IMG/VR virus record: IMGVR_UViG_3300025916_000008
Location: 40,845 to 104,844 of that record
DNA: 64,000 nt
From: a virus
Lineage: Duplodnaviria; Heunggongvirae; Uroviricota; Caudoviricetes
Strand: one strand, 5' to 3'
Shown: positions 4,367 through 55,043 of the stretch, one piece after another
How the letters are laid out: each line of letters opens with the position of its first letter
How positions within the stretch are numbered: position 1 is the stretch's first letter
Notes under the pieces: generated by a model
Databases searched by the model: none
What the model saw: the letters and a program-made list of their open reading frames with translations, nothing else
Told to the model about the DNA's origin: nothing
Made by a program: the position numbers and the translations under genes

Positions 4367-4385
4367 AATACAGGATTTCTTGATA
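4367..4385 (+). promoter_or_regulatory. 19-bp motif copy (aatacaggatttcttgata)
   Basis: 15 of 19 match to the consensus AATACAGCTTTTCTTGATA; 50 nt upstream of the 4435 ATG. Confidence 0.6.
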
Positions 4386-4434
4386 TTGTCTTGGCACGAA
4401 GACTTGCCTGTAACCCCGAGCCAGACGAGGAGCA

Positions 4435-4695
4435 GTGATCATGCCGCACCTGATGGGCCAGGTCCTGCCGCGCGACCTGAAGCCGGGCGACGAGATCATC
4501 CGCCCCTACGGCTCCAGCCCGGAGCGCGTGAGGCTGGTGGTCAAGCGCACCCAGAGGACGCACGGCGTTATCCGGGCCGGCCACGTCACCCGGTACAAGG
4601 TGATCACCGACCGCGCCGAGCACAACCGCTTCTGGGTCGCCCCGCACGTAAGGATCGATATCTGCCTCACCCACAAGAGGCCGGAGGAGTCATGA
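4435..4695 (+). CDS. hypothetical protein
   Basis: 86-aa ORF with a GAGGAG SD; its stop overlaps the ATG of the next gene (ATGA). Confidence 0.5.
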   Translation: MIMPHLMGQVLPRDLKPGDEIIRPYGSSPERVRLVVKRTQRTHGVIRAGHVTRYKVITDRAEHNRFWVAPHVRIDICLTHKRPEES

Positions 4696-5021
4696 GCGAG
4701 CCGCTGAAGCTAAGGATCTACATCAGGTTGATCGGCACCGATGAGCACCGGCTGCTCCGGGATGCCATCGCCGAGGCCCCCGCCGGCCACGTCACCTACG
4801 TTGACTCGCCAGAGGGCCAGGCAGCGATCGTCCCCGTGCAGGCCGCCCAGTGGTGGGAGGCATACCTCGCGGGGCTGTGCGCCATGTGCGGCCAGGGATC
4901 GCACGCTCACTGCTCCCGGTATTCCGGCACCGAGTGCAACTGCCTGAACACCGACGTCCACCATGAGATCGAGATGGAGCGGGCGGCCCGTGCCGGGCTG
5001 CTGAGCAGGAGGCATCGGTGA
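4692..5021 (+). CDS. hypothetical Cys/His-rich protein
   Basis: ATG at 4692 (residue 105 of ORF 4380-5021) coupled to the upstream stop; CAMCGQGSHAHCSRYSGTECNC cluster. Confidence 0.5.
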   Translation: MSEPLKLRIYIRLIGTDEHRLLRDAIAEAPAGHVTYVDSPEGQAAIVPVQAAQWWEAYLAGLCAMCGQGSHAHCSRYSGTECNCLNTDVHHEIEMERAARAGLLSRRHR

Positions 5022-5251
5022 CCCGGCAGTTTGAGTGGCCGCCTCTCACGGAGGAGGGCGACCGGGTGCGCAAGCACCTGATCACCGAGCACGGCGAGCT
5101 TGAGGCGGACGAGCTGAGCGATGTCCTGGCCTTCGCCGAGCACTACTCCCAGCATTTCTCCCCGGACGGGGGGATCACCCCGGCGAAGGGGACGCAGGAG
5201 CACTCATTCGCCGACCTGTCCTACAACGCGGACCTGGACGAGGAGGCGTAG
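5018..5251 (+). CDS. hypothetical acidic protein
   Basis: 77-aa ORF; its GTG start overlaps the previous stop (GTGA). Confidence 0.45.
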   Translation: MTRQFEWPPLTEEGDRVRKHLITEHGELEADELSDVLAFAEHYSQHFSPDGGITPAKGTQEHSFADLSYNADLDEEA

Positions 5252-5255
5252 GCCG

Positions 5256-5672
5256 GTGCCTTACGCGATTGCCGGCGTGGTCGTCTTCGTCCTGCTCGTG
5301 GCCGGGGGCGTCGAGCTTGACGACCTTATGCACGAGTACCCCGGCCAGTTCTACATGGGCGTCTTCGCCACACTGTTCATCGCCGTGGGCTGCGGCACCG
5401 CGCTGCTGCGCAGGGCCGCCAGGGGCGGGCACCAGGTGCCGCTCGTACGGGAGCTGCCTCCCCTGCCGAAGGCGATCCAGGCGGTGCCGGTCATGACCGC
5501 CGCCGCCGTGACGGCGGGGCCGCAGGAAGAGGTGGAGTGCGAGCGCCAGGACTGCGACCACAGGGTGGTCCCCAAGGCAGCCTGGGGCGTCCGGCTGGAG
5601 GGCGAGGCGAGGGAGCACCTGTTCTGCTCGGAGTGGTGCGCCCAGGCGTGGGACTCCGCCAGGGTGTCCTAG
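5256..5672 (+). CDS. membrane protein with C-terminal Cys cluster
   Basis: GTG at 5256 (residue 46 of ORF 5121-5672) 8 nt after a GGAGG; two hydrophobic helices; C-terminal ECERQDCDH...CSEWC. Its stop overlaps the stop of the convergent fibre gene. Confidence 0.5.
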   Translation: MPYAIAGVVVFVLLVAGGVELDDLMHEYPGQFYMGVFATLFIAVGCGTALLRRAARGGHQVPLVRELPPLPKAIQAVPVMTAAAVTAGPQEEVECERQDCDHRVVPKAAWGVRLEGEAREHLFCSEWCAQAWDSARVS

Positions 5673-8600
5673 CCGGGCGCTCCCGCGTAGACGCGGCGCT
5701 GTGCCTCCTGGAAGGCGGTGTAGGCGAGGTCGGCGTCGCGCTCGGCGTCGTAGGCCTGGGCGTAGAGGAAGCCCGCCGACCCGTCGGTGCCGCCGGCCTG
5801 CCGCATCATCTTGTAGTTCGACAGCTTCTGGTCGGCGATGATCTTCAGTGCCAGGTAGGAGGACCAGAGAGCCTCAAGGTCCGGGCCGGCCGTCGCCGAC
5901 GCGGCGAGCAGCGGCGTGCCGGACAGCGCGGCCTGGCCGAACCGGGTGAACGCGGTGGCGTACAGCACCGGGAGCGCGTGCAGGGAGGCCGCCCCCTGGA
6001 TGGGGATTTCCCCGGCGGCCGTCATCGTGCCCGGCGCGGCCAGGTGAGCTGTCCCGTTCTTCCCACGGGTCCCCTGGGCGTGCAGGATCGCGGCGGCAAG
6101 CAGCCCGGCAGTGAAGTGGAGGACACGGTGGCCGGCGGGGTGAAGCGCCCCCGAGCCGGACAGCGCGGCCGTGCCGGGCACCGTCCGGACGTGCCCGGCG
6201 AAGATCGTCCCGGACCCGGAGAGCGGCGCGACGGGGTTCTTGGCGACGGAGGGGGTGCCGCCGAAGGTCCCGATCCCCGACAGGGAGGCACCGGACGGGA
6301 TGTTCTTCCGGGAGACGGCGGCCAGGGTGCCCGACCCTGACAGCGGGGCGTGGCCCTCGTGCCCGATGACGGCGGCGGAAGCAAGGGAGCCGGGTGCCGA
6401 CATGGCGGCGGACGCGGCGTGCCCGTGGACCGGCGGGGCGGTCAGGGTCCCGGACCCGGAGAAGGCGACGACGCCCGGGACGAACTTCCTGCCGGCGGCG
6501 GTGAAGGTGCCGGACCCCGACAGCGGGGCGAACCCCGCGAAGGTCATGATGAAGACGGCCGTGAGGGAGCCCGAGCCCGACAGCGCCGCTGCACCGGGCG
6601 AGATGACCAGCGCAGCGCCCCCGATGGACCCCGAGCCCGACATCGCTGCGGTACCCGGGACCAGCTTCTGGCCGGTGCCGGAGGCGGTGCCCGAGCCGGA
6701 CAGGGAGACGGCGGCCTGGACCAGCACCAGGGCCTGGCCGCTGAGGGTCCCTGAGCCGTCCAGGGCGATGACGCGCGAGAAGGCGACCAGGGCGGCTGCG
6801 GTGATGGTGCCCTGGCCGTCGAGGGGAGCGGCCCCGGGGACCAGCTTCTGGCCCGCTGCGGTGAACGTGCCGGAGCCGTTAAGTGCCGCCGCGCCTGATA
6901 TGAACCCGCCCTCGACTGCCGTGATGCTGCCGGAGCCGTCCAGGGCTGCGGCACCGGGAACCGTCTTCTGCCCTGTGGCGGTGAAGCTCCCGGACCCCGA
7001 CAGGACGGCGGTGCCGCCCGGGATGATGATCGTCGGCGGTGCCGTCAGGGTGCCCGAGCCGGACATCGCCGACGCGCCCGGGACCTGCTTCTGCCCGGTC
7101 GCGGTGACCGTCCCCTGGCCGTCGAGGGCCGCCGCGCCGGGGACGCTCTTCTGGCCCGTTGAGGTGATGACGCCCGAGCCCGACATGGAGGACGCGCCGG
7201 GCACCTGCTTCTGCCCGGTCGCGGTGAAAGTGCCCGAGCCGGACATCGAGGACGCAGCCGGGACGATGACCGTCGGGGGTGCCGTGACGGTTCCGGAGCC
7301 GGAGAGGGCGGCTGCTCCGGGAACCTGCTTCTGGGCGGTGGCCGCGATGGTCCCCGAGCCCGACAGGGAGGCGGCCCCGGCGAGCACCCCGGCGGCGGTG
7401 AGCGTCCCCGAGCCCGACATCGCTGCGGTACCCGGGACCAGCTTCTGGCCGGTCGCGGTGAACGTCCCCGAGCCGGACAGGGCGGCCGAGCCGAAGGCGA
7501 AGATGGCGAAGGACCCGGTGAATGTCCCGATACCCGACAGGGAGGACGAGCCGGGAACCTGCTTCTGGGCGGTGGCAGTGATCGTGCCGGAGCCCGTGAG
7601 GGCTGCCGATCCCGCCAGGACCCCGGCAGCGGTGAAAGTGCCCGAGCCGGACATCGCCGACGCGCCGGGGACAGTCTTCTGGCCCGTAGCCGTGAAGGTG
7701 CCGGACCCTGCCAGGGCGGCGCTGCCCGCGAAGACCCCGGCCGCCGTGATAGTCCCTGACCCGGTGAGGGCGGCAGCACCGGGCACCGTCTTCTGGCCGG
7801 CGGCGGTGATAGCACCCGAGCCTGACAGGGAGGCCGTGCCGGCGTGCGTGACGGTTGCCTTGAACGTCGCGGCGACGGCAGTGTAGTCGGCGGCCGTCGT
7901 CTGCGTCCCGGAGTAGGTGACAGCCCCCGTGCTGGTCAGCACCTGGTAGCCGGCGACCAGGCCCATGACCCCGCCGGGCGAGTTCTGCTGCGCCAGGTTG
8001 AACCACGGGCTCGACGGCCCGCTGATCGTGCCGATGGACGGGCTGGCGAAGGCCCCCACCGCCCCGATGGCGACCTCGGAGGCCTGGGTGGTCGCCGCCG
8101 TCGCCCCGGAGGACCAGGAGGTAACCGTGGTGTCGCTGATCCCGCTGGAGGTCTTGTCGGGGGTAGCGGTGTTGGCCAAGCCGAACCACTCCATGACCGT
8201 GACCATGAGGGCGGCCCCGGTGCCCGAGGACGTGAAGGTAATGGAGAGCGCCGTCTGGCCGCCGGCGCAGTTGGGGTCAGCCCAGATCGCCGTCGTCATG
8301 AAATCAGAGGAGACGTTCCCGGCGGTGAGCGACTGCGCGAAGTTGTCGGCGCTGCCGCCGAGGGTGATCCCGGTGACGCTCGGGTTGTTGGTGCCCGCGT
8401 CCCCGGTGACGCACACGATCAGGCAGTTGCCGGAGGTCGTCGTCCAGGGCAGGGTTATGGATACCGGCGATGCAGCGCCGTTGCCCGTCACCGACTGGAC
8501 GAGCGACGGCTTCCCCTGGATGCCCCCGGTCGCCCTGATCGTGCCGGAGCCCGACAGGGAGGCGGTACCGCTGTGAGTGGTGCCCACGGCTTTGAACGTG

Positions 8601-9731: not shown

Positions 9732-9732
9732 G

Positions 9733-9939: not shown

Positions 9940-9950
9940 GCCGGTCCTCC

Positions 9951-12227
9951 TCACCCCCGCGCGGGGGCGTAGCTCTCGTAATCCACCAGGTCGCCGTCGT
10001 CCTCGGTCACGCCGAGGCGCGAGCGGATTCCGACGTGCGGCGGGTCCTGGTAGCCCCGGATCGACGGGCCGGAGAACCAGGTGCCCTGTCCCTTCTGGGC
10101 CTGCGCCTCGCTTTCTGCCTGGTGCGCCGCGAGGACGGGCAGGCCGTCGCTCCCGGAGGCGGCGATATCCCCCTCCAGGGCGGCCTCGTTGACGGCACGG
10201 GCCAGGGCTGCCATGCGGCGCACCCGGTCGGAGCGGCGCATCAGCGCCCCCTGCTTCGGCATGCCGCGCTTGCCGGCCTTCGGCATCGGGCCGCGCTGCT
10301 CGGAGGACTCCGGCGGTACCTGCGGCATGCCGCCCGCGTCCTCTCCGGCGATCTCGCCCTCGCTCGGGGCGTTGACCGGGCCGCCCGCCTGGGCCTCCAT
10401 CTCCTCGGCCATCTGCTGGTCCTCGGGGGTGGGCGCGAGGTCCGGCAGGGGCAGCGGCTGGACGCCCATCCGGTCGATCATCATCTGCTGGGCGGCCAGG
10501 GCCGGGGGAACGCCCTCCACCTGGGCGACGGGGGAGAAGTCGGCCATGAGGTCCGGCGGGACGGGCAGGCCCTGGTTGCGCAGCTCGACGAACGCCTGGC
10601 GGCGGGTGCGGGCCTGGGCGATGATGTCGGCGACCGCCTCGTCCTGGCTCTGCTCGCGCTCCTCGTCCAGGTCGACCCCGAGCCCCCGCGTGCGCGTGCG
10701 AGCGGAGATCGGGATGCCGGAGGCGCGCAGCGCCTCGGTGAACTGGCGGGTGATGTCCTCGTCCCGGAAGTTGAGGACCTGGCACTTGAGGTCGGGCACC
10801 AGGAGCTTGGGCTGCTCGGTGATCCGCTTCTCGCCGGTCTCCTCGTCGGTCTCCAGGACCTCCTCCATGATCACGAAGCGGCGGCCGGAGCGCTCCTCGT
10901 AGTCATAGTGTTCCTGCGCTTCAGCAACAATGAGCATCCGCTTGCGCATGTGCCTCATGAGCATCTGCTGGTAGGTGGTCATGAGCTGCTCGACGAGCTG
11001 CTTGTTGAGCGCGTCGGCGGCGTACGTCTGCCCCTCGCCCGCCCCGGTGAGGAACGTCCTGGACAGGCCGAACACCTGGAGAACCCGGTCCTCGATCCGC
11101 TCGAAGTCCATGCTCAGGTCAGGCATGTTCTCCCGGCCGAACACCGGCTCGATCTCCACCGCGAAGTTGTGGATCAGCGCCCGGAAGTCGCCCGCGAGGG
11201 CGGCGTCCAGCGCCATCTCGAAGTTCTCCAGGTCATCGTCGGTGGGAATCCACGGGACGCTGGTGCCGAGGTCGGTGGCGGACGCGCCGAGCTTGCACAG
11301 GATCAGCGGGGTGTAGAGCCGGTCGGCGATCGAGTCGAGCGCGGTGTTGAGCATCTCCTGCTGGAGCATGGAGCGCATCGCCCGGGTGAGCAGCGGCAGG
11401 CCCCGCAGGCTGAAGGTGTCGCCCTTGAACCGGAGCTGGCGCAGCAGGATGTTGCTGACCGGCATGAATGCGTTCTCGGCGGTGTAGGCGGCCAGCTCCG
11501 GGTACTCCTGGACCAGCCGGTTGTACTCCCAGGCCGGCTGGCGGGTGGTGAGGATCTGCCGGATCGTCCACGGCAGCCGGGTGAAGTACCGGGGCTCCTT
11601 CAGGAACGGGCTGCGCTCCACCTTGATGTCGTCGGCGTTGAGCAGCTCCTCGTCGTCCCAGATGCCCAGGTCCTCGTTGAACGTGGCGAACGGCCACGCC
11701 TCCCCGGTGATGTAGTACTCGCGGCCGATGTCGACGAGGAACTCGCCGTAGTCAAGGCCGTCGTCGCCGAAGAACAGGTCCTGGTAGAAGTCGGTGAGCC
11801 GCTGGTCCTTGCACTCCAGGTGCGCCCCGACGACAGGGAACTTGCTGAAGATGTCGACGCAGGAGCCGACGATCGGGTCGGTCTGGTAGAGCAGCCGGCA
11901 GAACGCCCGGACCTTCGCCAGCTCCTCGTTCTGGGAGAAGTCGTAGGGGAGGTTGTTCTGCCGCCAGTAGAACAGCGGGTCCCTGGGCCGTCCGGTGGCG
12001 AACTGGATGTCGGAGAAGCCAGACCCCCCGGCTCCCCCGGCCGTGTAGGCGGTGCGGCGGCCGACGGACGCCTGCCGGGCGTTGATCCGCCGGTTCTTGC
12101 GGGCCTCGGCGACCTCGGGGCTCATCTGCTCGGAGCTGAGCGCACCGACGCCCATCGTCCGGCCGAGCTGCCTGGCTACTGACGCCTGCCGGGCGGTGCC
12201 CGACCCCGGCCTGTACGCGACTCGCAT
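9951..12227 (-). CDS. large (758 aa) structural-module protein, function unassigned (portal or connector-like or tail component candidate)
   Basis: Long ORF with an AGGAGGT SD; globular N-terminal 550 aa then an acidic Pro/Gln/Ala-rich C-terminal tail; position next to the fibre genes. Confidence 0.5.
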   Translation of the reverse strand: MRVAYRPGSGTARQASVARQLGRTMGVGALSSEQMSPEVAEARKNRRINARQASVGRRTAYTAGGAGGSGFSDIQFATGRPRDPLFYWRQNNLPYDFSQNEELAKVRAFCRLLYQTDPIVGSCVDIFSKFPVVGAHLECKDQRLTDFYQDLFFGDDGLDYGEFLVDIGREYYITGEAWPFATFNEDLGIWDDEELLNADDIKVERSPFLKEPRYFTRLPWTIRQILTTRQPAWEYNRLVQEYPELAAYTAENAFMPVSNILLRQLRFKGDTFSLRGLPLLTRAMRSMLQQEMLNTALDSIADRLYTPLILCKLGASATDLGTSVPWIPTDDDLENFEMALDAALAGDFRALIHNFAVEIEPVFGRENMPDLSMDFERIEDRVLQVFGLSRTFLTGAGEGQTYAADALNKQLVEQLMTTYQQMLMRHMRKRMLIVAEAQEHYDYEERSGRRFVIMEEVLETDEETGEKRITEQPKLLVPDLKCQVLNFRDEDITRQFTEALRASGIPISARTRTRGLGVDLDEEREQSQDEAVADIIAQARTRRQAFVELRNQGLPVPPDLMADFSPVAQVEGVPPALAAQQMMIDRMGVQPLPLPDLAPTPEDQQMAEEMEAQAGGPVNAPSEGEIAGEDAGGMPQVPPESSEQRGPMPKAGKRGMPKQGALMRRSDRVRRMAALARAVNEAALEGDIAASGSDGLPVLAAHQAESEAQAQKGQGTWFSGPSIRGYQDPPHVGIRSRLGVTEDDGDLVDYESYAPARG

Positions 12228-15832: not shown

Positions 15833-15861
15833 GCCCCGATTCTATGCTGCTCTCTTGGAAA

Positions 15862-15880
15862 TATACAGCTTTTCTTGATA
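15862..15880 (+). promoter_or_regulatory. 19-bp motif copy (tatacagcttttcttgata) in divergent control region
   Basis: 18 of 19 match; between leftward gene 15617-15832 and rightward gene 15891. Confidence 0.7.
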
Positions 15881-15890
15881 AGCTGCGGGA

Positions 15891-16274
15891 ATGAGCGTGA
15901 AGAGCAGGAACGGCTCATGGAAGGGGCCTACGAGCATGAGTGAGACTAGCCAGGAGCCGGGCGGGTTCAGCGTCGCGGTGGTCACCGGCTTCAGCCCGGT
16001 CGAGATCTCGATCCAGCACCTCGTCCTGGACATCGACCCGGACGACTTCTTCACCACCGACAACATGCCGCGCGGACGGGACTACGGGTTCGACGCGGTA
16101 GACGTCGGCTACGCCATCGAGGACGCCGGGTACGAGCCGACCTCCGACCTCCAGTGGACAGGCACCCACTGGGCCTACGTCGTGCAGCCGAAGACAGACC
16201 CGGCCGGTGACCCGCGCTACCACCCCGGGAAGCTCCCGCCGCTCAGGGCGTGGGAGCAGGGCGGCTACGAGTGA
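15891..16274 (+). CDS. hypothetical acidic protein (first gene of rightward block)
   Basis: 127-aa ORF; an alternative ATG at 15936 would give the usual ~55-nt spacing from the motif copy. Confidence 0.45.
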   Translation: MSVKSRNGSWKGPTSMSETSQEPGGFSVAVVTGFSPVEISIQHLVLDIDPDDFFTTDNMPRGRDYGFDAVDVGYAIEDAGYEPTSDLQWTGTHWAYVVQPKTDPAGDPRYHPGKLPPLRAWEQGGYE

Positions 16275-20231: not shown

Positions 20232-20250
20232 AATACAGCTTTCCTTGATA
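20232..20250 (+). promoter_or_regulatory. 19-bp motif copy (aatacagctttccttgata) followed by inverted 9-mer agctgtatt
   Basis: 18 of 19 match; 20251-20259 is the reverse complement of motif positions 2-10. Confidence 0.7.
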
Positions 20251-20284
20251 AGCTGTATTCAGCAACCCCAGGGAGGGCCAGGAC

Positions 20285-23041: not shown

Positions 23042-23224
23042 ATGCAGAGGGTGCTGCTGGCGGTCGAGGCGTTCGCGCCTGACGGCATGAGCGAGGGCGA
23101 GGCCTCGCAGGACGTGTACCTGGCGCTGCGGGCGGCGTTCGCTTCCAGGGACATGCTGGTCGAGGTCAGTCACGTCAAGACAATGATGATTGCTTCCGAT
23201 TTATCAAGAAAAGCTGTATCCTGA
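23042..23224 (+). CDS. small hypothetical protein (doubtful)
   Basis: 60-aa ORF whose last codons run through the reverse-oriented motif copy. Confidence 0.25.
   Translation: MQRVLLAVEAFAPDGMSEGEASQDVYLALRAAFASRDMLVEVSHVKTMMIASDLSRKAVS
23202..23220 (-). promoter_or_regulatory. 19-bp motif copy in reverse orientation (tatcaagaaaagctgtatc)
   Basis: 18 of 19 match to the reverse complement; 10 nt upstream of the 23230 ATG. Confidence 0.65.
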
Positions 23225-25460: not shown

Positions 25461-25714
25461 TGGACGCCACCGAGTTCAGCGCCCAGATGCGGCGGGGCTA
25501 CTCCTCCAAGGCGGACGCCTGCCGGGACAAGACCCACCGCTCGTCGTGGGGCGTCATGGTCCGCCTCGGCAACTACAGCGCGTTCAACGGCTACCACTTC
25601 ACCCCCAGCGATTACTCGCTGGTCAGGTGCGGGCACCCAGGATGCGGGCGGATGTGGCGGACGAAGGCGTCCTATGTGAGCGAGCTGCCGGACCTGACCA
25701 GGGAGAGAGGGTGA
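25460..25714 (+). CDS. hypothetical protein
   Basis: 84 aa. Confidence 0.4.
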   Translation: MDATEFSAQMRRGYSSKADACRDKTHRSSWGVMVRLGNYSAFNGYHFTPSDYSLVRCGHPGCGRMWRTKASYVSELPDLTRERG

Positions 25715-26088
25715 GCGGCATGACGGACACTGAGGCCCGGACCGTGCTGCGCGCCGTCGCCGGGTACGAGTGGCCGGTCACCGCAGCCGAGACCGCGCGG
25801 ATGACCGGGCTGTCCCGGCAGACGACAGCCGGGATGATGGCCGAGCTGGCGCGCCAGGGGCTGCTGAGCAGGGCCAGGCAGGAGTCGCGCTCCTCCTACA
25901 CCGTCACCGAGACGGGGCGGGCCGAGCTGGAGCAGAACAAGACGACGGTCCTGGCGGTGGAGGTGGACGACCGGCTGGCCGCTGAGGTCATGGCCTACCT
26001 CCAGTCCGTCAACGGGGTGGAGATGGTCTACGAGCACGGCAACGGCTGCTGCTGCAAGAACTGCCCCTGGCGGGGGAACCACGGGTGA
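25711..26088 (+). CDS. winged helix-turn-helix transcriptional regulator (MarR/PadR-like)
   Basis: ETARMTGLSRQTTAGMMAELARQGLLSR...YTVTETGRAEL helix-turn-helix plus wing; C-terminal Cys cluster. Confidence 0.5.
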   Translation: MSGMTDTEARTVLRAVAGYEWPVTAAETARMTGLSRQTTAGMMAELARQGLLSRARQESRSSYTVTETGRAELEQNKTTVLAVEVDDRLAAEVMAYLQSVNGVEMVYEHGNGCCCKNCPWRGNHG

Positions 26089-27106: not shown

Positions 27107-27280
27107 CGGGGTGCTCCGTTACCTGGTTTCATTGGCAACGTGAAGCCGAGCGAGGACCTCCGGGAGTGCGGCCGGGCCGGGTGCGGCCACCAGCGCCGCG
27201 TCCATGACCACTACACGCACTCGACCTATTGCAGCACGACCGGGTGCCTGTGCCGGAAATGGCACCGGCCCCGTAGAGGA

Positions 27281-27299
27281 AATACAGGCTTTGTTGATA
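27281..27299 (+). promoter_or_regulatory. 19-bp motif copy (aatacaggctttgttgata)
   Basis: 16 of 19 match; 42 nt upstream of the 27341 ATG. Confidence 0.6.
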
Positions 27300-27340
27300 T
27301 CCTCTTGCTGATATCGGGGCACGAGGAAGGGAGCCTGAGC

Positions 27341-27580
27341 ATGACGAGGAAGTGGCGGGTCATCATCGCGGGATGGGCCAGGGGGCCGGGAATCAACGCG
27401 ATGTACGAGCTGTGGCTCGGCCTGACGTACGAGCCGTGGCGGCTGGTGCCGCACCTGCGGAGCCCGAGGAGGATTCCGGCAGGCGACGGGTACGAGTGCT
27501 CCTTCTGCGGGTCGCGCTCGGCGCGGGTCCAGGCCAAGGGACAGCGCAAGGCCGAGGCGATCCGGAGGCAGTTCGCATGA
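27341..27580 (+). CDS. hypothetical protein with C-terminal CSFCG Zn-ribbon half
   Basis: ATG at 27341, 42 nt after the motif copy with GAGGAAGGGAG SD. The longer ORF 27140-27580 would read through the motif and adds an N-terminal C/H-rich 67 aa; structure ambiguous. Confidence 0.4.
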   Translation: MTRKWRVIIAGWARGPGINAMYELWLGLTYEPWRLVPHLRSPRRIPAGDGYECSFCGSRSARVQAKGQRKAEAIRRQFA

Positions 27581-31224: not shown

Positions 31225-31240
31225 CAAGAAAAGCTGTAAG
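31222..31240 (-). promoter_or_regulatory. degenerate reverse-oriented half of a palindromic motif pair (tagcaagaaaagctgtaag)
   Basis: 15 of 19 match to the reverse complement; paired with the forward copy 12 nt downstream. Confidence 0.45.
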
Positions 31241-31251
31241 GATCTTCCACC

Positions 31252-31270
31252 GATACAGCCTTTATTGATA
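31252..31270 (+). promoter_or_regulatory. 19-bp motif copy (gatacagcctttattgata)
   Basis: 16 of 19 match; 37 nt upstream of the 31307 ATG. Confidence 0.6.
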
Positions 31271-31306
31271 AGCTCCGAGGAGCAGTAACTCGGAAGGGAG
31301 GCCGGG

Positions 31307-31540: not shown

Positions 31541-32470
31541 GTGACTCAGTTCATCTTCGCGGTCATCTTCTGGGTGATCATGATCATCTGCGGCTTCGTC
31601 GGCGTGTTCCTCGCGCAGAACCGCAAGGACCGGGCGGGGGCCATCACGGCAGCCGTGCTCCTCGGGGCCATCGGCTTCGGGCTGTTCGCATGGGGCGGGG
31701 TCAAGAACATCCCGCTCAAGAACATCGGCGTCCCCACGGCCCTCGGCAACGTGAACGGCACCGTCTACCAGAGCGGCACCTACGAGACGTGGACGCCGTG
31801 GCAGAGCTTCACCAACATCGACGAGACCGTCCAGTCCGTCACCTGGGAGGCCGGGCCGAAGAACAACGGCATCAACTGCGACGGCGGCCTCGCGATCCGC
31901 ATCGGCGGCCAGCAGAGTGCCTGCGCGAACGTCACCATCCAGTTCCAGGTCCGGCCGTCGGCCGCGATCAGCCTCCTGGAGGACTACGCCAACCACGGGC
32001 CGCTGATCCCCGAGATCAAGCAGGCCGTGGTCATCCGCGAGTTCGAGACCGTCGTCAACCAGGTGCTGGGCGACTACGACCCGATCACCGACCAGCAGAA
32101 CGTCAGCGACGCCAAGGTCACCACCAGCCAGTTCACGAAGTTCGCGCCGACCATCCTGGCCGACATGCGCAGCGACATCGGCGACAAGATCATCGTCCAG
32201 GCGGTCTACCTGCCGAAGGTGATCTTCGACCCGACCATCGAGGGCGCGCTCAACGCGATCCAGAAGGCGCACGCCGACTTCGCGGTCCAGACCGAGAACG
32301 AGCTGGTCAACTCCGCCCACAAGCAGGCGCTGACCAACCTCGGCAACCCGACCCTCAACCAGCTAATCGCCCAGTGCCTCGCCAACGCGGGCACCAGCAA
32401 CCCGGGGTCCTGCATCCCGGGTGCCAGCACCAAGCTCCAGCTCAGCGGAAGTGCGAACGCTGCGGGCTAG
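31541..32470 (+). CDS. SPFH/band-7 (stomatin/HflC-like) domain membrane protein candidate
   Basis: N-terminal TM helix followed by a ~250-aa domain whose alternating beta/alpha pattern and VQAVYLPKVIFDP...AIQKAHAD segment resemble SPFH domains. Confidence 0.45.
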   Translation: MTQFIFAVIFWVIMIICGFVGVFLAQNRKDRAGAITAAVLLGAIGFGLFAWGGVKNIPLKNIGVPTALGNVNGTVYQSGTYETWTPWQSFTNIDETVQSVTWEAGPKNNGINCDGGLAIRIGGQQSACANVTIQFQVRPSAAISLLEDYANHGPLIPEIKQAVVIREFETVVNQVLGDYDPITDQQNVSDAKVTTSQFTKFAPTILADMRSDIGDKIIVQAVYLPKVIFDPTIEGALNAIQKAHADFAVQTENELVNSAHKQALTNLGNPTLNQLIAQCLANAGTSNPGSCIPGASTKLQLSGSANAAG

Positions 32471-34960: not shown

Positions 34961-35248
34961 ATGGGACAGGAGAGCGGCGCGCCAGGGCGCGCCAGGACCG
35001 AGCCGGCACGCGCCGTGCCAGGGTACGGGCTGCGCTGGCGCGCCAGGGACTGGTGGCGCGCGGCGCGCTGGCGCGCCACCGAGAGGCCGCTGTGGGTCAT
35101 GGGGACGATCTGGTGCGCCGTCGGCGCGCTGATGATCCTGTCGTCCTTCACCGTGCCCGGCGCAGGGCCTGTGCCCGCGATCTTCGGGGCCGTGGTCCTT
35201 GTCCTCGGCGCGCTCGCCATGCAGGTCAAGGGGCGGTGGCGCAGGTGA
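34961..35248 (+). CDS. small membrane protein
   Basis: ATG at 34961; Arg/Trp-rich N-terminus then two TM helices. Confidence 0.4.
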   Translation: MGQESGAPGRARTEPARAVPGYGLRWRARDWWRAARWRATERPLWVMGTIWCAVGALMILSSFTVPGAGPVPAIFGAVVLVLGALAMQVKGRWRR

Positions 35249-35610
35249 GCGCGCCAGCAAGGGCAAAGCGGCCCGGCGCGGCGGTGCAGCGCAAGGCCCC
35301 CGTGCCGATGTGGCGCGCCCCTGACACGGTGGCGTGCCGCGACCAGGACACCAGCCTGTTCTACCCGGTGGAGGGACTGCGCGCCGACGAGCAGGAGGCG
35401 CGCTACTGGCGTGCCAAGGCGATGTGCGCCAGGTGCCCGTTCCAGGACGAGTGCCTGGAGCGCGCCATGGCCGAGGAGAAGACCGGCGGCCGGTACGGCA
35501 TCCGTGGAGGGATGACCCCCGAGGACCGCAAGCTCCTCGCCAGGAAGCAGTCCCGTAAGCCGAAGGGGAGACCAGGGCGGCCGAGGCGCACGCAGACCGT
35601 GGCCGCGTAG
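35245..35610 (+). CDS. whiB: WhiB-like (Wbl) iron-sulfur transcription factor
   Basis: Four Cys in C-x(n)-C-x2-C-x5-C spacing (CRDQ...CARCPFQDEC) plus the GIRGG turn and basic tail. GTG at 35245 is GTGA-coupled; an alternative ATG lies at 35308. Confidence 0.8.
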   Translation: MSAPARAKRPGAAVQRKAPVPMWRAPDTVACRDQDTSLFYPVEGLRADEQEARYWRAKAMCARCPFQDECLERAMAEEKTGGRYGIRGGMTPEDRKLLARKQSRKPKGRPGRPRRTQTVAA

Positions 35611-35620: not shown

Positions 35621-35639
35621 AATACGGCTTTTCTTGATA
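35621..35639 (+). promoter_or_regulatory. 19-bp motif copy (aatacggcttttcttgata)
   Basis: 18 of 19 match; 11 nt after the whiB-like stop and 58 nt upstream of the 35697 ATG. Confidence 0.7.
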
Positions 35640-35646
35640 ACCTCGG

Positions 35647-36539: not shown

Positions 36540-36566
36540 GAGGCCGGGAGAAGTTTTCCCGGCCTC
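36540..36566 (+). terminator. terminator hairpin preceding motif copy
   Basis: 9-bp stem gaggccggg / cccggcctc; loop rich in T. Confidence 0.5.
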
Positions 36567-36573
36567 TTCCGCT

Positions 36574-36592
36574 AATACAGCTTTTCTTGATA
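36574..36592 (+). promoter_or_regulatory. 19-bp motif copy, perfect consensus
   Basis: aatacagcttttcttgata; terminator hairpin upstream, conserved leader downstream. Confidence 0.75.
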
Positions 36593-36633
36593 TGTTGGCA
36601 GTGCAAGGGACGAGCAGCGAGGAGGAGCGCCAG

Positions 36634-37367: not shown

Positions 37368-37543
37368 GCCAGGAAGAGCGGGCACTGACCCAGGAGGAGC
37401 GGGCGCTCAAGCGGTGCTGCCGCGCCTGCCGGGCAGGCGTCGGCGAGAAGTGCTTCGACCTGCGGCCCGGCTACAAGGGGCTGCGGAAGAAGCACCTCTG
37501 CTCCACGCGCGTCGTGGACGCGAGGCCGGGGGCGAGGCGGTGA
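37364..37543 (+). CDS. small Zn-ribbon protein
   Basis: GTG at 37364 (GTGA); CCRACRAG...CFDLRPGY, paralogous to the C-terminus of the next gene. Confidence 0.35.
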   Translation: MSQEERALTQEERALKRCCRACRAGVGEKCFDLRPGYKGLRKKHLCSTRVVDARPGARR

Positions 37544-37974
37544 CCGACGGGATTCTCAGGGAGCACGGCGTCACCCCCAGCGCCGAGAGCATCTTCGCCA
37601 GGTGGGGCATGTGGCCCAGCTCCCCGGCGGTCAGCGAGATCGCCCGTCGCGAGCAGGCTAAGCGGCTGCTCGTGTACCTCGCCCTCAAGGGCTACGGCGT
37701 GCCCGCCTGGGACCGCCTCACCAAGGGCGAGCAGGACGCCCTGTCCGAGGAGCTGGCCAGGGTGTTCCGGGACACCGAGGCCGAGGTGCGCAAGCTGGCC
37801 CTCGCTGAGCTGGCCGAGTACGAGCGCAGGGCGCTGGCCCTCCAGTGCGAGAAGTGCCGTGCCCAGGAGGGCACCCAGTGCTGGGACATGCGTCCGGGCT
37901 TCCAGAGGAGGCACGTCAGCCACCCGCACAAGGAGCGGATGGAAGCGCTGGCAGAGGCGGAGGCGGAAGCGTGA
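37540..37974 (+). CDS. hypothetical protein with C-terminal Zn ribbon
   Basis: GTG at 37540 (GTGA); CEKCRAQEGTQCWDMRPGF. Confidence 0.45.
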   Translation: MTDGILREHGVTPSAESIFARWGMWPSSPAVSEIARREQAKRLLVYLALKGYGVPAWDRLTKGEQDALSEELARVFRDTEAEVRKLALAELAEYERRALALQCEKCRAQEGTQCWDMRPGFQRRHVSHPHKERMEALAEAEAEA

Positions 37975-40883: not shown

Positions 40884-40918
40884 GGGGCCGCAGGAGTGAT
40901 AATCACCCCTGCGGCCCC
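40884..40918 (+). terminator. terminator hairpin preceding motif copy
   Basis: 11-bp perfect stem ggggccgcagg / cctgcggcccc extended by a partly palindromic loop. Confidence 0.55.
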
Positions 40919-40925
40919 TTCCATG

Positions 40926-40944
40926 AATACAGCTTTTCTTGATA
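40926..40944 (+). promoter_or_regulatory. 19-bp motif copy, perfect consensus
   Basis: Preceded by hairpin 40884-40918; ATG 10 nt downstream. Confidence 0.75.
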
Positions 40945-40954
40945 ATATTCTCTC

Positions 40955-41299
40955 ATGAGCCTCACCCAGTTGATGATCCGCCCGGAGATCCTCGCCGCCC
41001 ACAAGGCCACCTGGTTCGTGGTGGCCGGACGCCAGCGGATACGCCGCACCAGCAGGATGCGCGGCACCTGGGGCTACGACGTCACCTGCTCGTGCGGCTG
41101 GGACAGCAAGACCGGCGGCGCGACCAGGGGCAGCGTGGAGGACGCGCTGTTCGACCACCGCATGGACGCCCAGATCGACGCTGACGCGCTCGCCCAGGCC
41201 TGCCCCGACTGCAAGGCCGAGCCCGGCACCGGGTGCAGCGACTGGAGCCGCCTGGTCAGCTACATGCACGCCGGGCGTTACCAGGCCATCCCCGACTGA
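40955..41299 (+). CDS. hypothetical protein with CSCG...CPDC
   Basis: ATG 10 nt after the motif copy. Confidence 0.45.
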   Translation: MSLTQLMIRPEILAAHKATWFVVAGRQRIRRTSRMRGTWGYDVTCSCGWDSKTGGATRGSVEDALFDHRMDAQIDADALAQACPDCKAEPGTGCSDWSRLVSYMHAGRYQAIPD

Positions 41300-41341
41300 G
41301 GACTTTCTTCCCGCAAGGAACCAGCAACCGAAAGAGGGAAC

Positions 41342-42079: not shown

Positions 42080-42095
42080 CCCGGTGCGGAGAGGG

Positions 42096-42122
42096 CGCAG
42101 GGGAAGCCCTGCGTCCTTTTCG
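42096..42122 (+). terminator. intrinsic terminator with T-tract
   Basis: 7-bp stem cgcaggg / ccctgcg with loop gaag, then tccttttcg. Confidence 0.55.
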
Positions 42123-42138
42123 CGTTCCCCATTGCGTC

Positions 42139-42157
42139 AATACAGCTTTTCTTGATA
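42139..42157 (+). promoter_or_regulatory. 19-bp motif copy, perfect consensus, start of 60-nt cassette
   Basis: Followed by leader atgttggtcttgcaagggacgagcggccaggaggacccc ATG. Confidence 0.75.
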
Positions 42158-42196
42158 ATGTTGGTCTTGCAAGGGACGAGCGGCCAGGAGGACCCC

Positions 42197-42952: not shown

Positions 42953-42971
42953 AATACAGCTTTTCTTGATA
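42953..42971 (+). promoter_or_regulatory. 19-bp motif copy, perfect consensus, second copy of 60-nt cassette
   Basis: Leader nearly identical to the 42158-42196 leader. Confidence 0.75.
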
Positions 42972-43010
42972 ATGTTGGTCTTGCAAGGGACAAGCGACCA
43001 GGAGGACCTG

Positions 43011-43995: not shown

Positions 43996-44031
43996 AGAGG
44001 CCCGGCCCCCGTCACTAGGGGCCGGGCCTCT
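43996..44031 (+). terminator. terminator hairpin
   Basis: 14-bp stem agaggcccggcccc / ggggccgggcctct with loop cgtcacta, then ttaac. Confidence 0.6.
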
Positions 44032-44043
44032 TTAACATCCGTA

Positions 44044-44062
44044 TATCAAGAAAACCTGTATC
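44044..44062 (-). promoter_or_regulatory. 19-bp motif copy in reverse orientation (tatcaagaaaacctgtatc)
   Basis: 17 of 19 match to the reverse complement; between terminator 43996-44031 and the 44074 ATG. Confidence 0.6.
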
Positions 44063-44073
44063 ATGGAGGAACT

Positions 44074-44557: not shown

Positions 44558-45124
44558 ATGGCCAGGGGGAAGCGCCGCTACGGGCGCAAGCTGAGCCGCT
44601 GGGGCCTCCCGGCGGCTACAGTCTTCACCCTGTGGCTGGCCGACAACGACCCGTTCGGGCCGTCCGGCCTCCTGGCATTCCTCGGGCTGGCCCTGCTGCT
44701 GTCCGTCTTCTGGCCGGTCGCCCTGATCATGCTCGTGCAAGCCCCAGGCAGCCTTGTGCCGAACTCCTGGCGCATCTGGTGGCGCGGCGGTGACCCGGGC
44801 AGGCCGCACATCCCCAACTGGCTCAGGCGGGCCGTGTACGCCGCCGACGGGCGGCGCTGCTGCTACTGCGGCTACGCCGGCTCCCTCCAGCTCGACCACG
44901 TGCGCCCCTGGTCGCGCGGCGGGCGCTCCTCGCTGTGGAACCTGATGACGCTGTGCGAGCCGTGCAACCTGGTCAAGTCGAACTACTGGCAGGACCGGGA
45001 CTACCGCTGGTACCGGCCGTTTGCCGGGCACGACAACATCCGCACGGCGGCGGCCATCCTCTCGTTCGAGCGCAGGCACCGCTGGAGCCCTCTGCGTCTC
45101 ATTCGGGCAGCAATGGCACTTTAA
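44558..45124 (+). CDS. HNH endonuclease with N-terminal membrane-anchor region
   Basis: CCYCGYAGSLQLDHVRPWSRGG...NLMTLCEPCNLVKSN is a canonical HNH motif (C-x2-C...DH...N...C-x2-C-N). Confidence 0.75.
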   Translation: MARGKRRYGRKLSRWGLPAATVFTLWLADNDPFGPSGLLAFLGLALLLSVFWPVALIMLVQAPGSLVPNSWRIWWRGGDPGRPHIPNWLRRAVYAADGRRCCYCGYAGSLQLDHVRPWSRGGRSSLWNLMTLCEPCNLVKSNYWQDRDYRWYRPFAGHDNIRTAAAILSFERRHRWSPLRLIRAAMAL

Positions 45125-46221: not shown

Positions 46222-46253
46222 GAGGCCCCCTCCCACCGCCGGGAGGGGGCCTC
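46222..46253 (+). terminator. terminator hairpin
   Basis: Perfect 13-bp stem gaggccccctccc / gggagggggcctc with loop accgcc. Confidence 0.6.
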
Positions 46254-46277
46254 GCGGCTTCCCGGGGTCCTTGTGCG

Positions 46278-46296
46278 AATACAGCTTTTCTTGATA
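46278..46296 (+). promoter_or_regulatory. 19-bp motif copy, perfect consensus
   Basis: Terminator 46222-46253 upstream; leader with CCAGGAGGG SD downstream. Confidence 0.75.
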
Positions 46297-46339
46297 TCCT
46301 CCTGGTGCAGAGAACAAGACGCCGAGCCAGGAGGGCATC

Positions 46340-46819
46340 ATGAGGTACTTCGCGCTGGTAGGGACCGACGACAGCGTGGTCGCAGGCGAGGTCTGCGACC
46401 TGATCATCGTGGACGAGGACTCCCCCGGCGCGTCCGGGCTATCGCTTCCGCTGTTCGTCAAGGTCACCGACCCCGACAAGCTGGGCAAGGCCCAGGCCGC
46501 CGCCGAGGGCGTGCTCCGTGAGCTGGACTGGCGCGTCACCGGGCCATGGGAGATCGCCGACACGCACCTGCGCGCCCCGGTGGAGATGAGGGGGCCAGGT
46601 ACGGCCGGGGCAGCGCCGCGCGAGGCCGACGAGTGGCCCGCCGGGAAGTCCTTCGGCGAGCTGAGCCCGGGGCAGAAGGTCGTCCAGGCGAGGAAGGCCG
46701 GGCGGAGGCTGGAGGCGGAGCTGAACTCCCCTGCGGTGCAGGCCGCGATCAGCGCGCTCCTGGACTCGGACCTGGACGAGCAGGACGCGGCAGCCGTCGA
46801 GCGGCACCTCGGCCTGTAG
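46340..46819 (+). CDS. hypothetical protein
   Basis: ATG at 46340 after terminator + motif + leader. Confidence 0.5.
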   Translation: MRYFALVGTDDSVVAGEVCDLIIVDEDSPGASGLSLPLFVKVTDPDKLGKAQAAAEGVLRELDWRVTGPWEIADTHLRAPVEMRGPGTAGAAPREADEWPAGKSFGELSPGQKVVQARKAGRRLEAELNSPAVQAAISALLDSDLDEQDAAAVERHLGL

Positions 46820-46826: not shown

Positions 46827-46862
46827 CAAGAGCCCGGACCGGACAGTCGGTCCGGGCTCTTG
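46827..46862 (+). terminator. terminator hairpin
   Basis: Perfect 15-bp stem caagagcccggaccg / cggtccgggctcttg with loop gacagt. Confidence 0.65.
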
Positions 46863-46866
46863 CGTG

Positions 46867-46885
46867 AATACAGCTTTTCTTGATA
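46867..46885 (+). promoter_or_regulatory. 19-bp motif copy, perfect consensus
   Basis: 15-bp-stem terminator 46827-46862 immediately upstream. Confidence 0.75.
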
Positions 46886-46924
46886 TTCTCCTAGTGCAAG
46901 GACACGAGCAGCCAGGAGGACGCC

Positions 46925-51938: not shown

Positions 51939-51947
51939 GTTCCCCTC

Positions 51948-53510: not shown

Positions 53511-54007
53511 GGGATGGGGTCAAAGGGCGGTAACGGAGAGGTAACGATGCTGGCAGACGACTCGATAACGTCCATGATCACGGAAAGGTCACAGCCGCGA
53601 AGGGGCGGCATCCGCCCGGCGTCCACGAAGTCGAGCCACATGCCGGCCACCTCGGAGGCCGCCAGGCCGCCCTTCACCCGGTCAGCGGCCCAGCCGGGCA
53701 TACGCCCGTACCACTGCTTCCTGCCGGAGTCGGGCTTGCGCACCGGCTCCAGGCCCAGCTCGACCGCCCTGGCGACCAGGGCGCGGATCTGGGACCGGGT
53801 GAGGATCACCCGGGTGCCCGCGTCGAGGATCTCCCGGGCGACCGCCACCGGGTCGTTGCCGTCGTCGCGGCGGGCCGCCGCGTCCGCGCTGGCGCACCCC
53901 TGGTGCAGCTTGCGCCCGTAGAAGTAGAAGTACTCGTCCCCGAGGACGAACTCACCCTTGCACTCGTCGCAGGTGATCCCCGGTTCCCTTGCCGTCGCCG
54001 TCGCCAC
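53507..54007 (-). CDS. hypothetical protein with N-terminal Zn ribbon (CDEC...HQGC)
   Basis: 166 aa; its start overlaps the 3' end of the next gene by 56 nt. Confidence 0.45.
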   Translation of the reverse strand: MATATAREPGITCDECKGEFVLGDEYFYFYGRKLHQGCASADAAARRDDGNDPVAVAREILDAGTRVILTRSQIRALVARAVELGLEPVRKPDSGRKQWYGRMPGWAADRVKGGLAASEVAGMWLDFVDAGRMPPLRGCDLSVIMDVIESSASIVTSPLPPFDPIP

Positions 54008-54305
54008 TGAAGCCTCCCAAGGCTTCCGTGGCGAACTGGCCCTCCTCGTCCGGGTAGATCCCGTAAGCGGCCAGGATCGCGGCCGAGAGCTTGTCGGCGG
54101 CGGTGGCGGACAGCCGCCGCAGGAAGGCCCGCGCCTCGTCGAAGGCCGGGGACACGCCGTCCCGGGCCACCTTCCCGTCGAGCAGCTCCAGCATCGCGTC
54201 CGCCTGGCGCAGGTCCTCCGCGAGCGGCCAGATGTCTTCCCGGCCAGGCCACTTGCGCGGGTCCGGTCCCTCGTGGACCGGGACCTCCTCCGGGTTCGCG
54301 CTCAC
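53952..54305 (-). CDS. hypothetical protein
   Basis: GTG at 54305 is GTGA-coupled to the UDG stop; 117 aa. Confidence 0.4.
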   Translation of the reverse strand: MSANPEEVPVHEGPDPRKWPGREDIWPLAEDLRQADAMLELLDGKVARDGVSPAFDEARAFLRRLSATAADKLSAAILAAYGIYPDEEGQFATEALGGFSGDGDGKGTGDHLRRVQG

Positions 54306-54874
54306 GCGGCCGGGACCTTATATACCGAGGCGAGGGCTTCGATGGCCGCGTTCTTCCACTCGGGGACCTCGCGAGCTGAAAGCCGCATGATGTAGCTCGG
54401 GTGAGGCAGCGCCAGGAGCCTGCGGCCGTTCAGCTCGTGCCAGTGGAAGCGAGACTCCTCGAACCGGCCGATGGAGTCAGCGCCCAGGCCGCGCCAGGCG
54501 ACCGACCCGGCGGCGACGACCACGACGGGATTGACGGCATCCAGCTCGGCGGCGAGGCGCGGCTGCGACGCGGTGACCTCGAACGGGTAGGGAGTGCGGT
54601 TCCCGGGCGGACGCCACAGGACCACGTTGGTGACGTAGCACAGCTCCCAGGGGACCTCGGCCCTGGCGAAGATGTCCTGGAGGAGCTTCCCGGCGGGGCC
54701 GGTGAACGGCCTCCCGGTGCGTTCCTCCGTAGCGCCCGGGGCCTCGCCGACGACGGCGAGCGCGCCGTGCGGGCCGTGCCCGCGCACCATCTCCCGCCCC
54801 TCGGCCAGCCGGGCGAAGAGGGGATTGCCCGCGTACGCCTCGTACAGCGCGTCCAGTGACTGCTGCTCGCTCAT
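54302..54874 (-). CDS. udg: uracil-DNA glycosylase, family 4
   Basis: GEAPGATEERTGRPFTGPAGKLL (family-4 motif A) and LALPHPSYI (HPS motif B) at correct spacing. Confidence 0.85.
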   Translation of the reverse strand: MSEQQSLDALYEAYAGNPLFARLAEGREMVRGHGPHGALAVVGEAPGATEERTGRPFTGPAGKLLQDIFARAEVPWELCYVTNVVLWRPPGNRTPYPFEVTASQPRLAAELDAVNPVVVVAAGSVAWRGLGADSIGRFEESRFHWHELNGRRLLALPHPSYIMRLSAREVPEWKNAAIEALASVYKVPAA

Positions 54875-54896
54875 GTGTCTCCTCCCGGGAACCAGC

Positions 54897-55001
54897 GGGC
54901 CGGGCGGCTCGTGAGAGCGCCCGGCCCGGGGCGGCGGTCATCGGGACCGCCGCTGCAAGGAACAAGCAGCCGTCCCTCCCCGCGTACGCCCGTGGGGAGG
55001 G
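54897..55001. other. two GC-rich hairpins in 179-nt intergenic spacer upstream of udg
   Basis: 10-bp stem gggccgggcg / cgcccggccc (54897-54927) and 8-bp stem ccctcccc / ggggaggg (54974-55001). Confidence 0.45.
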
Positions 55002-55024
55002 GGGACTACCAGGAACTCCAGGAT

Positions 55025-55043
55025 AATACAGCTTTTCTTGACA
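55025..55043 (+). promoter_or_regulatory. 19-bp motif copy (aatacagcttttcttgaca) between two leftward genes
   Basis: 18 of 19 match; plus-strand orientation although both flanking genes are on the minus strand. Confidence 0.65.

Follow-up and report, generated by a model that had tools for sequence, protein, structure and literature searches.

Which protein reads a 19-bp motif that recurs 16 times in a stretch of phage DNA, and to what effect? The stretch, called the window below, comprises 64,000 nucleotides (positions 40,845 to 104,844) of the IMG/VR record IMGVR_UViG_3300025916_000008 (Caudoviricetes). Between 15.9 and 48.1 kb it contains some 80 small, densely packed genes on the plus strand, with minus-strand blocks of large genes on both sides. 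Our answer, to which we give a probability of about 0.72, is that the motif copies are the cores of promoters for the principal sigma factor of the host (SigA/HrdB type), and that the spacer between their -35 and -10 elements probably also forms the operator of a regulator. At the level of sequence, the first part is well supported, namely that the sites are host principal-sigma promoters with predicted starts about 7 nt past the -10 hexamers, and that they and the hairpins upstream of them divide the small-gene block into short transcription units.

A scan of the window with up to three mismatches returned exactly the 16 copies of the original prediction (Table 1), where dinucleotide shuffles give an expectation of 0. 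As 13 of its 19 positions are A/T in a window of 70% G+C, the motif is very unlikely to have arisen by chance. Raising the limit to six mismatches adds just one site, an overlapping half-copy at 20241(-). Six copies are exact (36574, 40926, 42139, 42953, 46278 and 46867); the copy at 55025, previously counted with them, has one mismatch, and the others have one to three, i.e. they match 16-18 of the 19 positions and not 15-18. Their placement in intergenic gaps holds for 15 of the 16, which are intergenic or at a gene end, the intergenic share of the window being 5.8% in a gene model built on third-position GC content (GC3); the copy at 27281 lies inside a conserved open reading frame (ORF). 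The copies in plus orientation ahead of a plus-strand start codon number only 12 instead of 13, at distances of 10-57 nt, the copy at 55025 being situated between two minus-strand genes. Every copy except 31222(-) faces a downstream gene. Finally, the earlier failure to fit a -35/-10 pair is explained by the fact that a scan of strict E. coli type yields nothing; the claim is correct for that consensus but not for the actinobacterial forms TAnnnT and TGnTAnnnT.

We aligned the 16 window copies with their flanks to locate information beyond base 19. Position 20 is A or T in 15 of them and position 23 is T in 12, compared with a T frequency of about 0.15; TT is present at -6/-5 relative to the motif in 11, and purines are enriched at positions 30 and 33. 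The last two bases of the motif, TA, open a TAnnnT -10 hexamer, of which position 23 is the sixth base; bases 15-16 supply the TG of an extended -10 (TGnTAnnnT), bases 15-23 reading T-G-n-T-A-W-n-n-T. A TT(G/C) is found 17-18 bp upstream of the hexamer, at the place expected for a -35. The sequence TGNTANNNT occurs 15 times in the whole window on both strands, 12 times in motif copies. We then assembled 59 non-redundant copies with at most three mismatches from the window and at least six related IMG/VR contigs. TAnnnT is present at positions 18-23 in 39 of these 59, referred to here as direct copies. T15 and G16 do not vary in the direct copies, whether from the window or from relatives; position 17 can be A, C or G, which suits the n of TGn. 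Of the 39, 18 have a TTG at 17-18 bp, ten more a TTn and 11 neither. The commonest -10 hexamer, TAAGCT, forms together with the next G an inverted repeat with motif bases 5-10 (CAGCTT/AAGCTG).

The distances downstream of the hexamer were also informative. In 13 copies from the window and its relatives, an ATG or GTG follows the hexamer after 6-7 nt and opens an ORF of 54-127 codons, mostly with a GC3 of at least 0.85. This spacing is the geometry required for a leaderless mRNA that begins at its own start codon; in the window, the starts at 15891 and 40955 lie exactly 6 nt past the hexamer and open long high-GC3 ORFs. At the same distance, other copies have a conserved TGCAAGG(G/A)AC leader with a strong AGGAGG behind it, and their start codon comes about 30-35 nt past the predicted start. 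The leader, TGCAAGG(G/A)AC-N8-12-AGGAGG, is found at 36597-36633, 42162-42196, 42976-43010 and 46890-46924, and once without a promoter, at 41300-41341, before gene 41342; it could serve as a standby site, a stability element or a second operator. Hairpins ranking in the lowest 2% of random windows lie upstream of five of the 15 promoter-oriented copies, with a weaker one at 36574. We rejected the idea that the U-rich motif is the tail of a terminator, because it begins about 10-15 nt past the hairpins.

In published maps of actinobacterial start sites, TANNNT precedes 73% of the primary start sites of M. tuberculosis and 80% of the start sites of S. coelicolor, TGNTANNNT is the rare (7%) and strongest -10 class, and the -35 is absent or only weak (PMC3898074, PMC4895711). 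In S. coelicolor about 21% of the primary start sites yield leaderless transcripts; a typical untranslated region measures 30-39 nt (PMC3898074, PMC4895711). We read the copies as principal-sigma promoters because their TGnTAnnnT and their leaderless geometry match these maps; a TTG at 17-18 bp is often present as well.

The 20 copies without a direct hexamer revealed a second use of the motif. In 16 of them a TAnnnT lies on the opposite strand, the motif's left end supplying it (CTG-TAT[T/C]nT), and only four have neither; among the 39 direct copies an opposite-strand TAnnnT is found in just seven. The reversed copies have their own TTG 16-17 bp upstream, past the other end of the motif, and the same hexamer followed by 5/6 nt and the TGCAAGG leader or a start codon. 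Their TG directly abuts the hexamer, a TG at -15/-14 with a free base being a property of the direct copies only. Both halves of the 19-mer are conserved whichever end makes the -10. The general layout is thus TTGnnn, the 19-mer in either orientation as spacer, and TAnnnT.

At least six related phages from metagenomes preserve the 19-mer base for base, and several high-GC IMG/VR contigs that are syntenic with the window contain the exact 18-mer. These syntenic relatives share 40-75% protein identity with it and about 70-80% nucleotide identity in conserved genes. In orthologous intergenic regions, hairpin sequences and flanks diverge around a set of retained elements: the -35 TTG, the 19-mer, the last T of the hexamer, the GCAAGG leader and the Shine-Dalgarno sequence. 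The promoter at 46867 gives a clear phylogenetic footprint among relatives, and the rightward hexamer at 44044 is TATCAT or TATAAT in four aligned genomes; sites orthologous to 55025 have partly decayed. A short leftward RNA from 44044(-), which we also considered, was discarded: the leftward hexamer lacks its final T in five of five genomes, and it is the rightward one that is conserved.

The copy at 27281 separates selection on DNA from selection on protein. The ORF that contains it (27140-27580) is conserved at full length in two related phages, and the three phages have in common AAT ACA GGn TTT nTT GnT ATn, spelt with A/T-ending codons that are rare in the genome. In the codon G16-n17-T18 the residue changes (Asp/Ala/Gly) and the G and T are retained. 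The rare A/T-ending codons and the free position 17 therefore argue for selection on the DNA and not on the protein. The ORF is Cys/His-rich, and the metagenome gene caller annotated only its 79-aa C-terminal part; two protein isoforms are possible.

What happens to the spacer at greater distances? Loci whose conserved structural protein is just 44-52% identical (L194-L197) lack the 19-mer and carry TATCAAGGTTTATTGATATTCT (sister-clade element TATCAAGGTTTATTGATA): a TATCAA-N6-TTGATA palindrome that has an ATG 6 nt downstream and, 17-18 bp upstream, a TTG or TT hexamer. By comparison, the motif of the window clade has a dyad in which the half-sites ATACAG and ATCAAG match at four of six positions. 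A still more distant clade (L203-L205) has CTCCTCTAAGGAAACCTGCTAAcGT, then 6-7 nt and ATG, in the layout gacTTGC/TGGA-CTCCTCTAAGGAAACC-TGCTAAcGT. The putative promoters of both clades would mostly be leaderless. A -35, a strictly conserved clade-specific spacer, TGnTAnnnT and an often leaderless predicted start thus form a family trait. Outside these clades, no comparable motif family was seen in Rhodococcus phage Finch (stretches 1-50000 and 89000-138896), by portal protein the nearest cultured relative, and our literature searches on the motif sequences brought up no paper.

Taken together, we propose that the host RNA polymerase with its principal sigma (SigA/HrdB type) would read each promoter through a TTGnnn (-35, often present), 0-2 nt, the 19-mer as spacer with its TG at -15/-14, and a terminal TA opening TAnnnT. 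Transcription would start about 7 nt past the hexamer, either on the A/G of the start codon (the leaderless genes at 15891, 40955 and 23230) or on a 5' leader, GCAAGG(G/A)AC...AGGAGG, about 30-35 nt before the start codon. At several copies a cassette of terminator, promoter and leader would punctuate the roughly 45-kb small-gene block. The spacer would be the operator of a phage-specific DNA-binding regulator that switches the promoter class as a group. We infer such an operator because the 19-mer is conserved in either orientation, whichever end gives the -10. Since the polymerase of the host is a conserved enzyme that makes directional contacts, the ligand would most likely be a separate, clade-specific protein; this is also suggested by the spacer itself, which is sharply bounded, kept across divergent genomes and within a gene, and swapped wholesale between clades. 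The simplest action would be that of a repressor of the whole class, occluding the spacer and the -10, since the protein would sit between a -35 and a -10 separated by an optimal spacer of 17-18 bp. Such repression could amount to early-gene shut-off, or could be of immunity type if the phages prove temperate.

A more specific proposal, which we put forward only tentatively and consider somewhat unlikely, is that the 19-mer is the operator of a clade-specific phage factor that switches this extended -10 class on SigA/HrdB, through either early repression or takeover of sigma. In the former version, the factor would be a global repressor of early genes in a large, apparently lytic actinophage; in the latter, the WhiB-like protein of the phage would block region 4 of sigma and thereby leave only those phage promoters active that have an extended -10. 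The window encodes a WhiB-like Fe-S protein, at 35236-35610(+) (Pfam E = 1.6e-13), whose tail, KPKGRPGRPRR, resembles the AT-hook of WhiB7, and a motif copy lies directly downstream of its gene. At WhiB7-type promoters, the AT-rich site of the AT-hook is immediately upstream of the -35 (PMC3905903). We therefore rejected the analogy with WhiB7: the motif lies downstream of the -35, within the spacer, which is the wrong side, and the -35 is not preceded by an AT-rich tract. Among other candidate regulators, a MarR-like winged-helix protein (25711-26088, +) is a weak one, and two zinc-finger proteins are encoded at 37540-37974 and 40955-41299. Pfam matches to `Serglycin' were artefacts of GS linkers in the query.

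Several observations weigh against the reading of the copies as host principal-sigma promoters with an operator in the spacer. Eleven of the 39 direct copies have a weak -35 or none, and 0 sites came out of the strict E. coli-type scan of the window. The copies were collected by similarity to a consensus (at most three mismatches), which inflates their apparent conservation, and gene conversion between cassettes could add to their uniformity. Start sites and timing are deduced from sequence. As for the operator, the motif of the window clade is merely an imperfect dyad, and no spacer-binding regulator was identified among the window proteins; in one motif-bearing relative, L055/L208, only the C-terminal half of the MarR-like protein aligns and its winged-helix half does not, which counts against this candidate.

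The uniformity of the copies also lends itself to an explanation without any regulator, a serious alternative that we nevertheless judge improbable. The sites would be plain strong promoters, their spacer kept for polymerase binding (extended -10, T-tract and AT-rich melting region together forming an optimum) and homogenized by recombination between cassettes. Such recombination has been proposed for the promoter-early stem-loop (PeSL) cassettes known from T4-like myoviruses (Arbiol 2010; Comeau 2014, PMC4122927). The strong hairpins ahead of five copies and the weaker one at 36574 would fit, as would the approximately 57 nt of near-identical promoter and leader common to some copies, e.g. 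42139 and 42953; gene content between cassettes also differs markedly between the window and relatives such as L001, as at PeSLs (PMC4122927). However, the 19-mer is equally conserved when reversed, although contacts of the polymerase have a direction; its conservation also has a sharp 19-bp boundary and persists at 40-75% protein identity and inside a coding region. Moreover, distant clades swap the spacer within the same architecture, which an optimum for a conserved polymerase does not predict.

The original prediction had seen in the motif either a promoter for a non-canonical or phage-specific polymerase or sigma, or an array of repressor operators. A promoter or operator role is supported by our analysis, and the idea of a special polymerase is not. 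It is true that the motif is long, asymmetric and phage-specific, and that a T7-like or non-canonical enzyme, or a sigma, might be encoded outside the window, our scans having covered about 40% of the genome. Yet a canonical TGnTAnnnT with a TTG at 17-18 bp is present, an element whose two ends can each provide the -10 cannot be a directional one of -35-like or T7 type, and Pfam and PHROGs scans of the window proteins revealed no sigma factor or RNA polymerase, which agrees with the earlier remark that a single-subunit enzyme is missing there. We thus hold a phage-encoded reader to be very unlikely. The weak resemblance to T7-class promoters noted at the time falls as well, given that conservation stops at about -11 and that either orientation of the element is in use. 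The operator analogy (phiC31 conserved inverted repeats, L5 sites) survives in modified form, as operators within promoter spacers. Stoperators proper, i.e. sites at which an immunity repressor blocks elongation in gaps independently of promoters, seem to us hardly credible here, even though, like those of L5-type arrays, the sites are asymmetric, scattered over intergenic DNA and for the most part oriented along transcription (PMC9283540). In 55 of the 59 copies the -10 is in its correct place, the predicted leaderless starts keep a constant distance of 6-7 nt, and the leader is the same after copies of either orientation; nor did the same scans turn up an integrase, an immunity repressor or any other gene of lysogeny in the window.

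The window copies and their predicted roles are collected in Table 1. The degenerate copy at 31222(-) is possibly an auxiliary site or a decayed copy; it and its neighbour, which lie back to back with 11 nt between them just past a hairpin, make an imperfect inverted repeat (31222-31270).

Table 1. Motif copies of the window with associated elements; roles and leaderless starts are predictions.
Feature	Position	Strand	Predicted role or context
Copy, 2 mismatches, -10 TATTGT (4384-4389)	4367-4389	+	Rightward promoter for 4441-5672, divergent gap
Copy, 1 mismatch, -10 TAAGCT (15879-15884)	15860-15884	+	6 nt, then ATG 15891; leaderless
Second hexamer TATATT at the same site	15860-15865	-	Faces leftward block 15832->9951
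Copy, 1 mismatch, -10 TAAGCT	20232-20259	+	Serves gene 20285
28-bp near-palindrome AATACAGCTT-N8-AAGCTGTATT	20232-20259	+	Site of the copy serving gene 20285
Inverted copy, 1 mismatch	23202-23222	-	Left end makes plus-strand -10 TATCCT (23217-23222)
ATG 23230, 86 codons	7 nt past hexamer 23217-23222	+	Leaderless
Copy, 3 mismatches, -10 TATCCT	27281-27303	+	Inside ORF 27140-27580; ahead of internal Shine-Dalgarno sequence and ATG 27341
Degenerate inverted copy, 3 mismatches	31222-31240	-	No -10 on either strand
Copy, 3 mismatches, -10 TAAGCT	31252-31274	+	Serves gene 31307
Copy, 1 mismatch, -10 TAACCT	35621-35643	+	Serves gene 35697 (DUF4097); directly 3' of WhiB-like gene
Hairpin (36541-36565), perfect copy (36574-36592), -10 TATGTT, GCAAGGGAC leader	36541-36596	+	Gene 36634
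Strong hairpin, perfect copy (40926-40944), -10 TAATAT (40943-40948)	40885-40957	+	6 nt to ATG 40955; leaderless, 114 codons
Strong hairpin, perfect copy (42139-42157), -10 TAATGT, leader TGCAAGGGAC..AGGAGG	42083-42196	+	Gene 42197
Perfect copy, -10 TAATGT, leader as at 42197	42953-43010	+	Gene 43011; orthologous site kept in relatives
Hairpin (43996-44031), inverted copy (44044-44062, 2 mismatches)	43996-44073	-	Best-conserved block, four genomes
-10 TATCAT (44059-44064) from inverted 44044 copy	Then ATG 44074 after 9 nt	+	
Strong hairpin, perfect copy (46278-46296), -10 TATCCT, leader	46222-46339	+	Gene 46340
Strong hairpin, -35 TTGCGT, perfect copy (46867-46885), -10 TATTCT, leader	46831-46924	+	Gene 46925
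Copy, 1 mismatch, TTGACA	55023-55043	+	Between two minus-strand genes; no plus-strand -10
TATTAT hexamer at 55025 copy	55023-55028	-	Faces gene 54874->54302

The phage itself is a large, uncultured actinobacterial phage, distantly related to the Cluster C mycobacteriophages. Its portal protein (9951-12227, -, 758 aa; phrog_2833, E = 1e-143) has its closest cultured relatives, at about 36% identity, in Cluster C mycobacteriophages, Gordonia myoviruses and Rhodococcus phage Finch, and most of the remaining window proteins are without a family match in Pfam or PHROGs. A megablast search with 20 kb of the window against GenBank phages gave no match, an Rfam search of the window gave none either, and no tRNA was found in it; identical sequence is present in metagenome assemblies only (Logan SRR5456976 and JGI 3300020125). 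The IMG/VR relatives span 120-165 kb. Both ends of one 161.7-kb contig map to neighbouring parts of the window, and this contig is probably a complete, circularly permuted genome; since it looks complete, we take the window to be about 40% of an actinobacterial phage genome of about 160 kb. A further perfect copy lies about 1.5 kb past the left end of the window (8159-8177 of L216), in a divergent gap upstream of a DUF6011 gene, and the genome therefore holds more than 16 copies.

Annotated genes of the small-gene block include those of an HNH endonuclease (44558-45124), an SPFH/Band-7 protein (31541-32470) and a zf-HC2-like protein (46340-46819), all on the plus strand; the C-terminus of the last weakly matches the zf-HC2 helix of anti-sigma factors. 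A 1807-aa protein of the structural block (56652-62075, -) has three C-terminal domains: an RNA-ligase-like region (residues 1337-1463), an Arr-like ADP-ribosyltransferase (1525-1626) and a LigT/2'-5' RNA ligase domain (1679-1782). This protein could be a virion-delivered modifier like T4 Alt.

Searches for the motif beyond the relatives were less rewarding. Matches from a degenerate scan of viral contigs were swamped by AT-rich chance hits and set aside, and matches in bacterial genome contigs were likewise attributed to chance in AT-rich genomes, except in one contig of a Streptosporangiaceae metagenome-assembled genome (L156; JAICYD010000103.1). This contig carries a perfect 19-mer and a degenerate second copy at 6429-6565, in a lower-GC, roughly 900-bp non-coding stretch of bacterial chromosome that adjoins a gene for an Ltp-type lipoprotein and has purA, ogt and a methyltransferase gene in its vicinity. 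This stretch may derive from a phage or point to the host.

A promoter spacer that is strictly conserved, independent of orientation and specific to a clade is unusual. The analysis yields a precise predicted promoter map (starts, leaderless genes, terminator-promoter cassettes) for uncultured actinobacterial phages of about 160 kb in which hardly any gene has a known function. If a factor binds the spacer, it would offer a simple handle on the timing of gene expression in these phages, and the sites would be compact, strong and possibly switchable promoter parts for high-GC actinobacteria. If that factor switches the class as tentatively proposed above, the change of spacer between clades would reflect co-evolution of regulator and operator, an immunity-like specificity without known lysogeny. 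If nothing binds, the sites would be an ordinary family of strong phage promoters.

How does this promoter family compare with known systems? With the extended -10 promoters of actinobacteria it shares the hexamer, the TG at -15/-14 and, by prediction, the start distance, leaderless mRNAs and untranslated regions of about 30-40 nt (PMC3898074, PMC4895711), but host promoters have no conserved spacer, whereas 17 spacer positions are nearly invariant here. T7-type promoters differ in being a directional consensus of about 23 bp that spans the start; conservation in the window ends about 11 nt before the predicted start. Extended -10 promoters are also relied upon by the Thermus phage P23-45 while the host polymerase is modified. 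The middle promoters of T4, with their MotA box and -10, likewise place a phage-specific element upstream of a host-type -10 (PMC2988021). However, the MotA box at -30 replaces the -35 and is directional, whereas the window element can be flipped and often has a -35; no homologue of AsiA/MotA or of gp39/gp76 was found in the Pfam or PHROGs scans of the window proteins.

On the operator side, the conserved inverted repeats of phiC31 are a repeated site of about 17 bp at the early promoters of an actinophage, and they are true inverted repeats. The window motif is akin to them as a repeated, promoter-associated site of an actinophage; it differs in its dyad of only four matches in six, the sister-clade TATCAA-N6-TTGATA being palindromic. 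Dispersed, asymmetric repressor operators are known from P1 (the C1 operators) as well as from L5. The gp71 sites of L5 and other Cluster A phages resemble our motif in forming many asymmetric copies of 13-17 bp genome-wide, some overlapping promoters, with clade-specific variants (PMC9283540). Those phages, however, are temperate and have an identified repressor, and their stoperators lie outside promoters and depend on orientation; the window sites lie in promoter spacers and are used in both orientations, with no repressor or lysogeny module seen in the window. The hairpin-bearing cassettes closely resemble PeSLs, in which a stem-loop directly upstream of a sigma70-type promoter is followed by a Shine-Dalgarno sequence and a start codon, the cassette being repeated between small ORFan genes of a large myovirus and the gene content between cassettes varying among relatives. 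In the window, only about six of 15 copies have a hairpin, and many transcripts are predicted to be leaderless. PeSLs conserve the -35, the -10 and an AT-rich upstream region, whereas the window copies conserve the spacer, and do so in both orientations.

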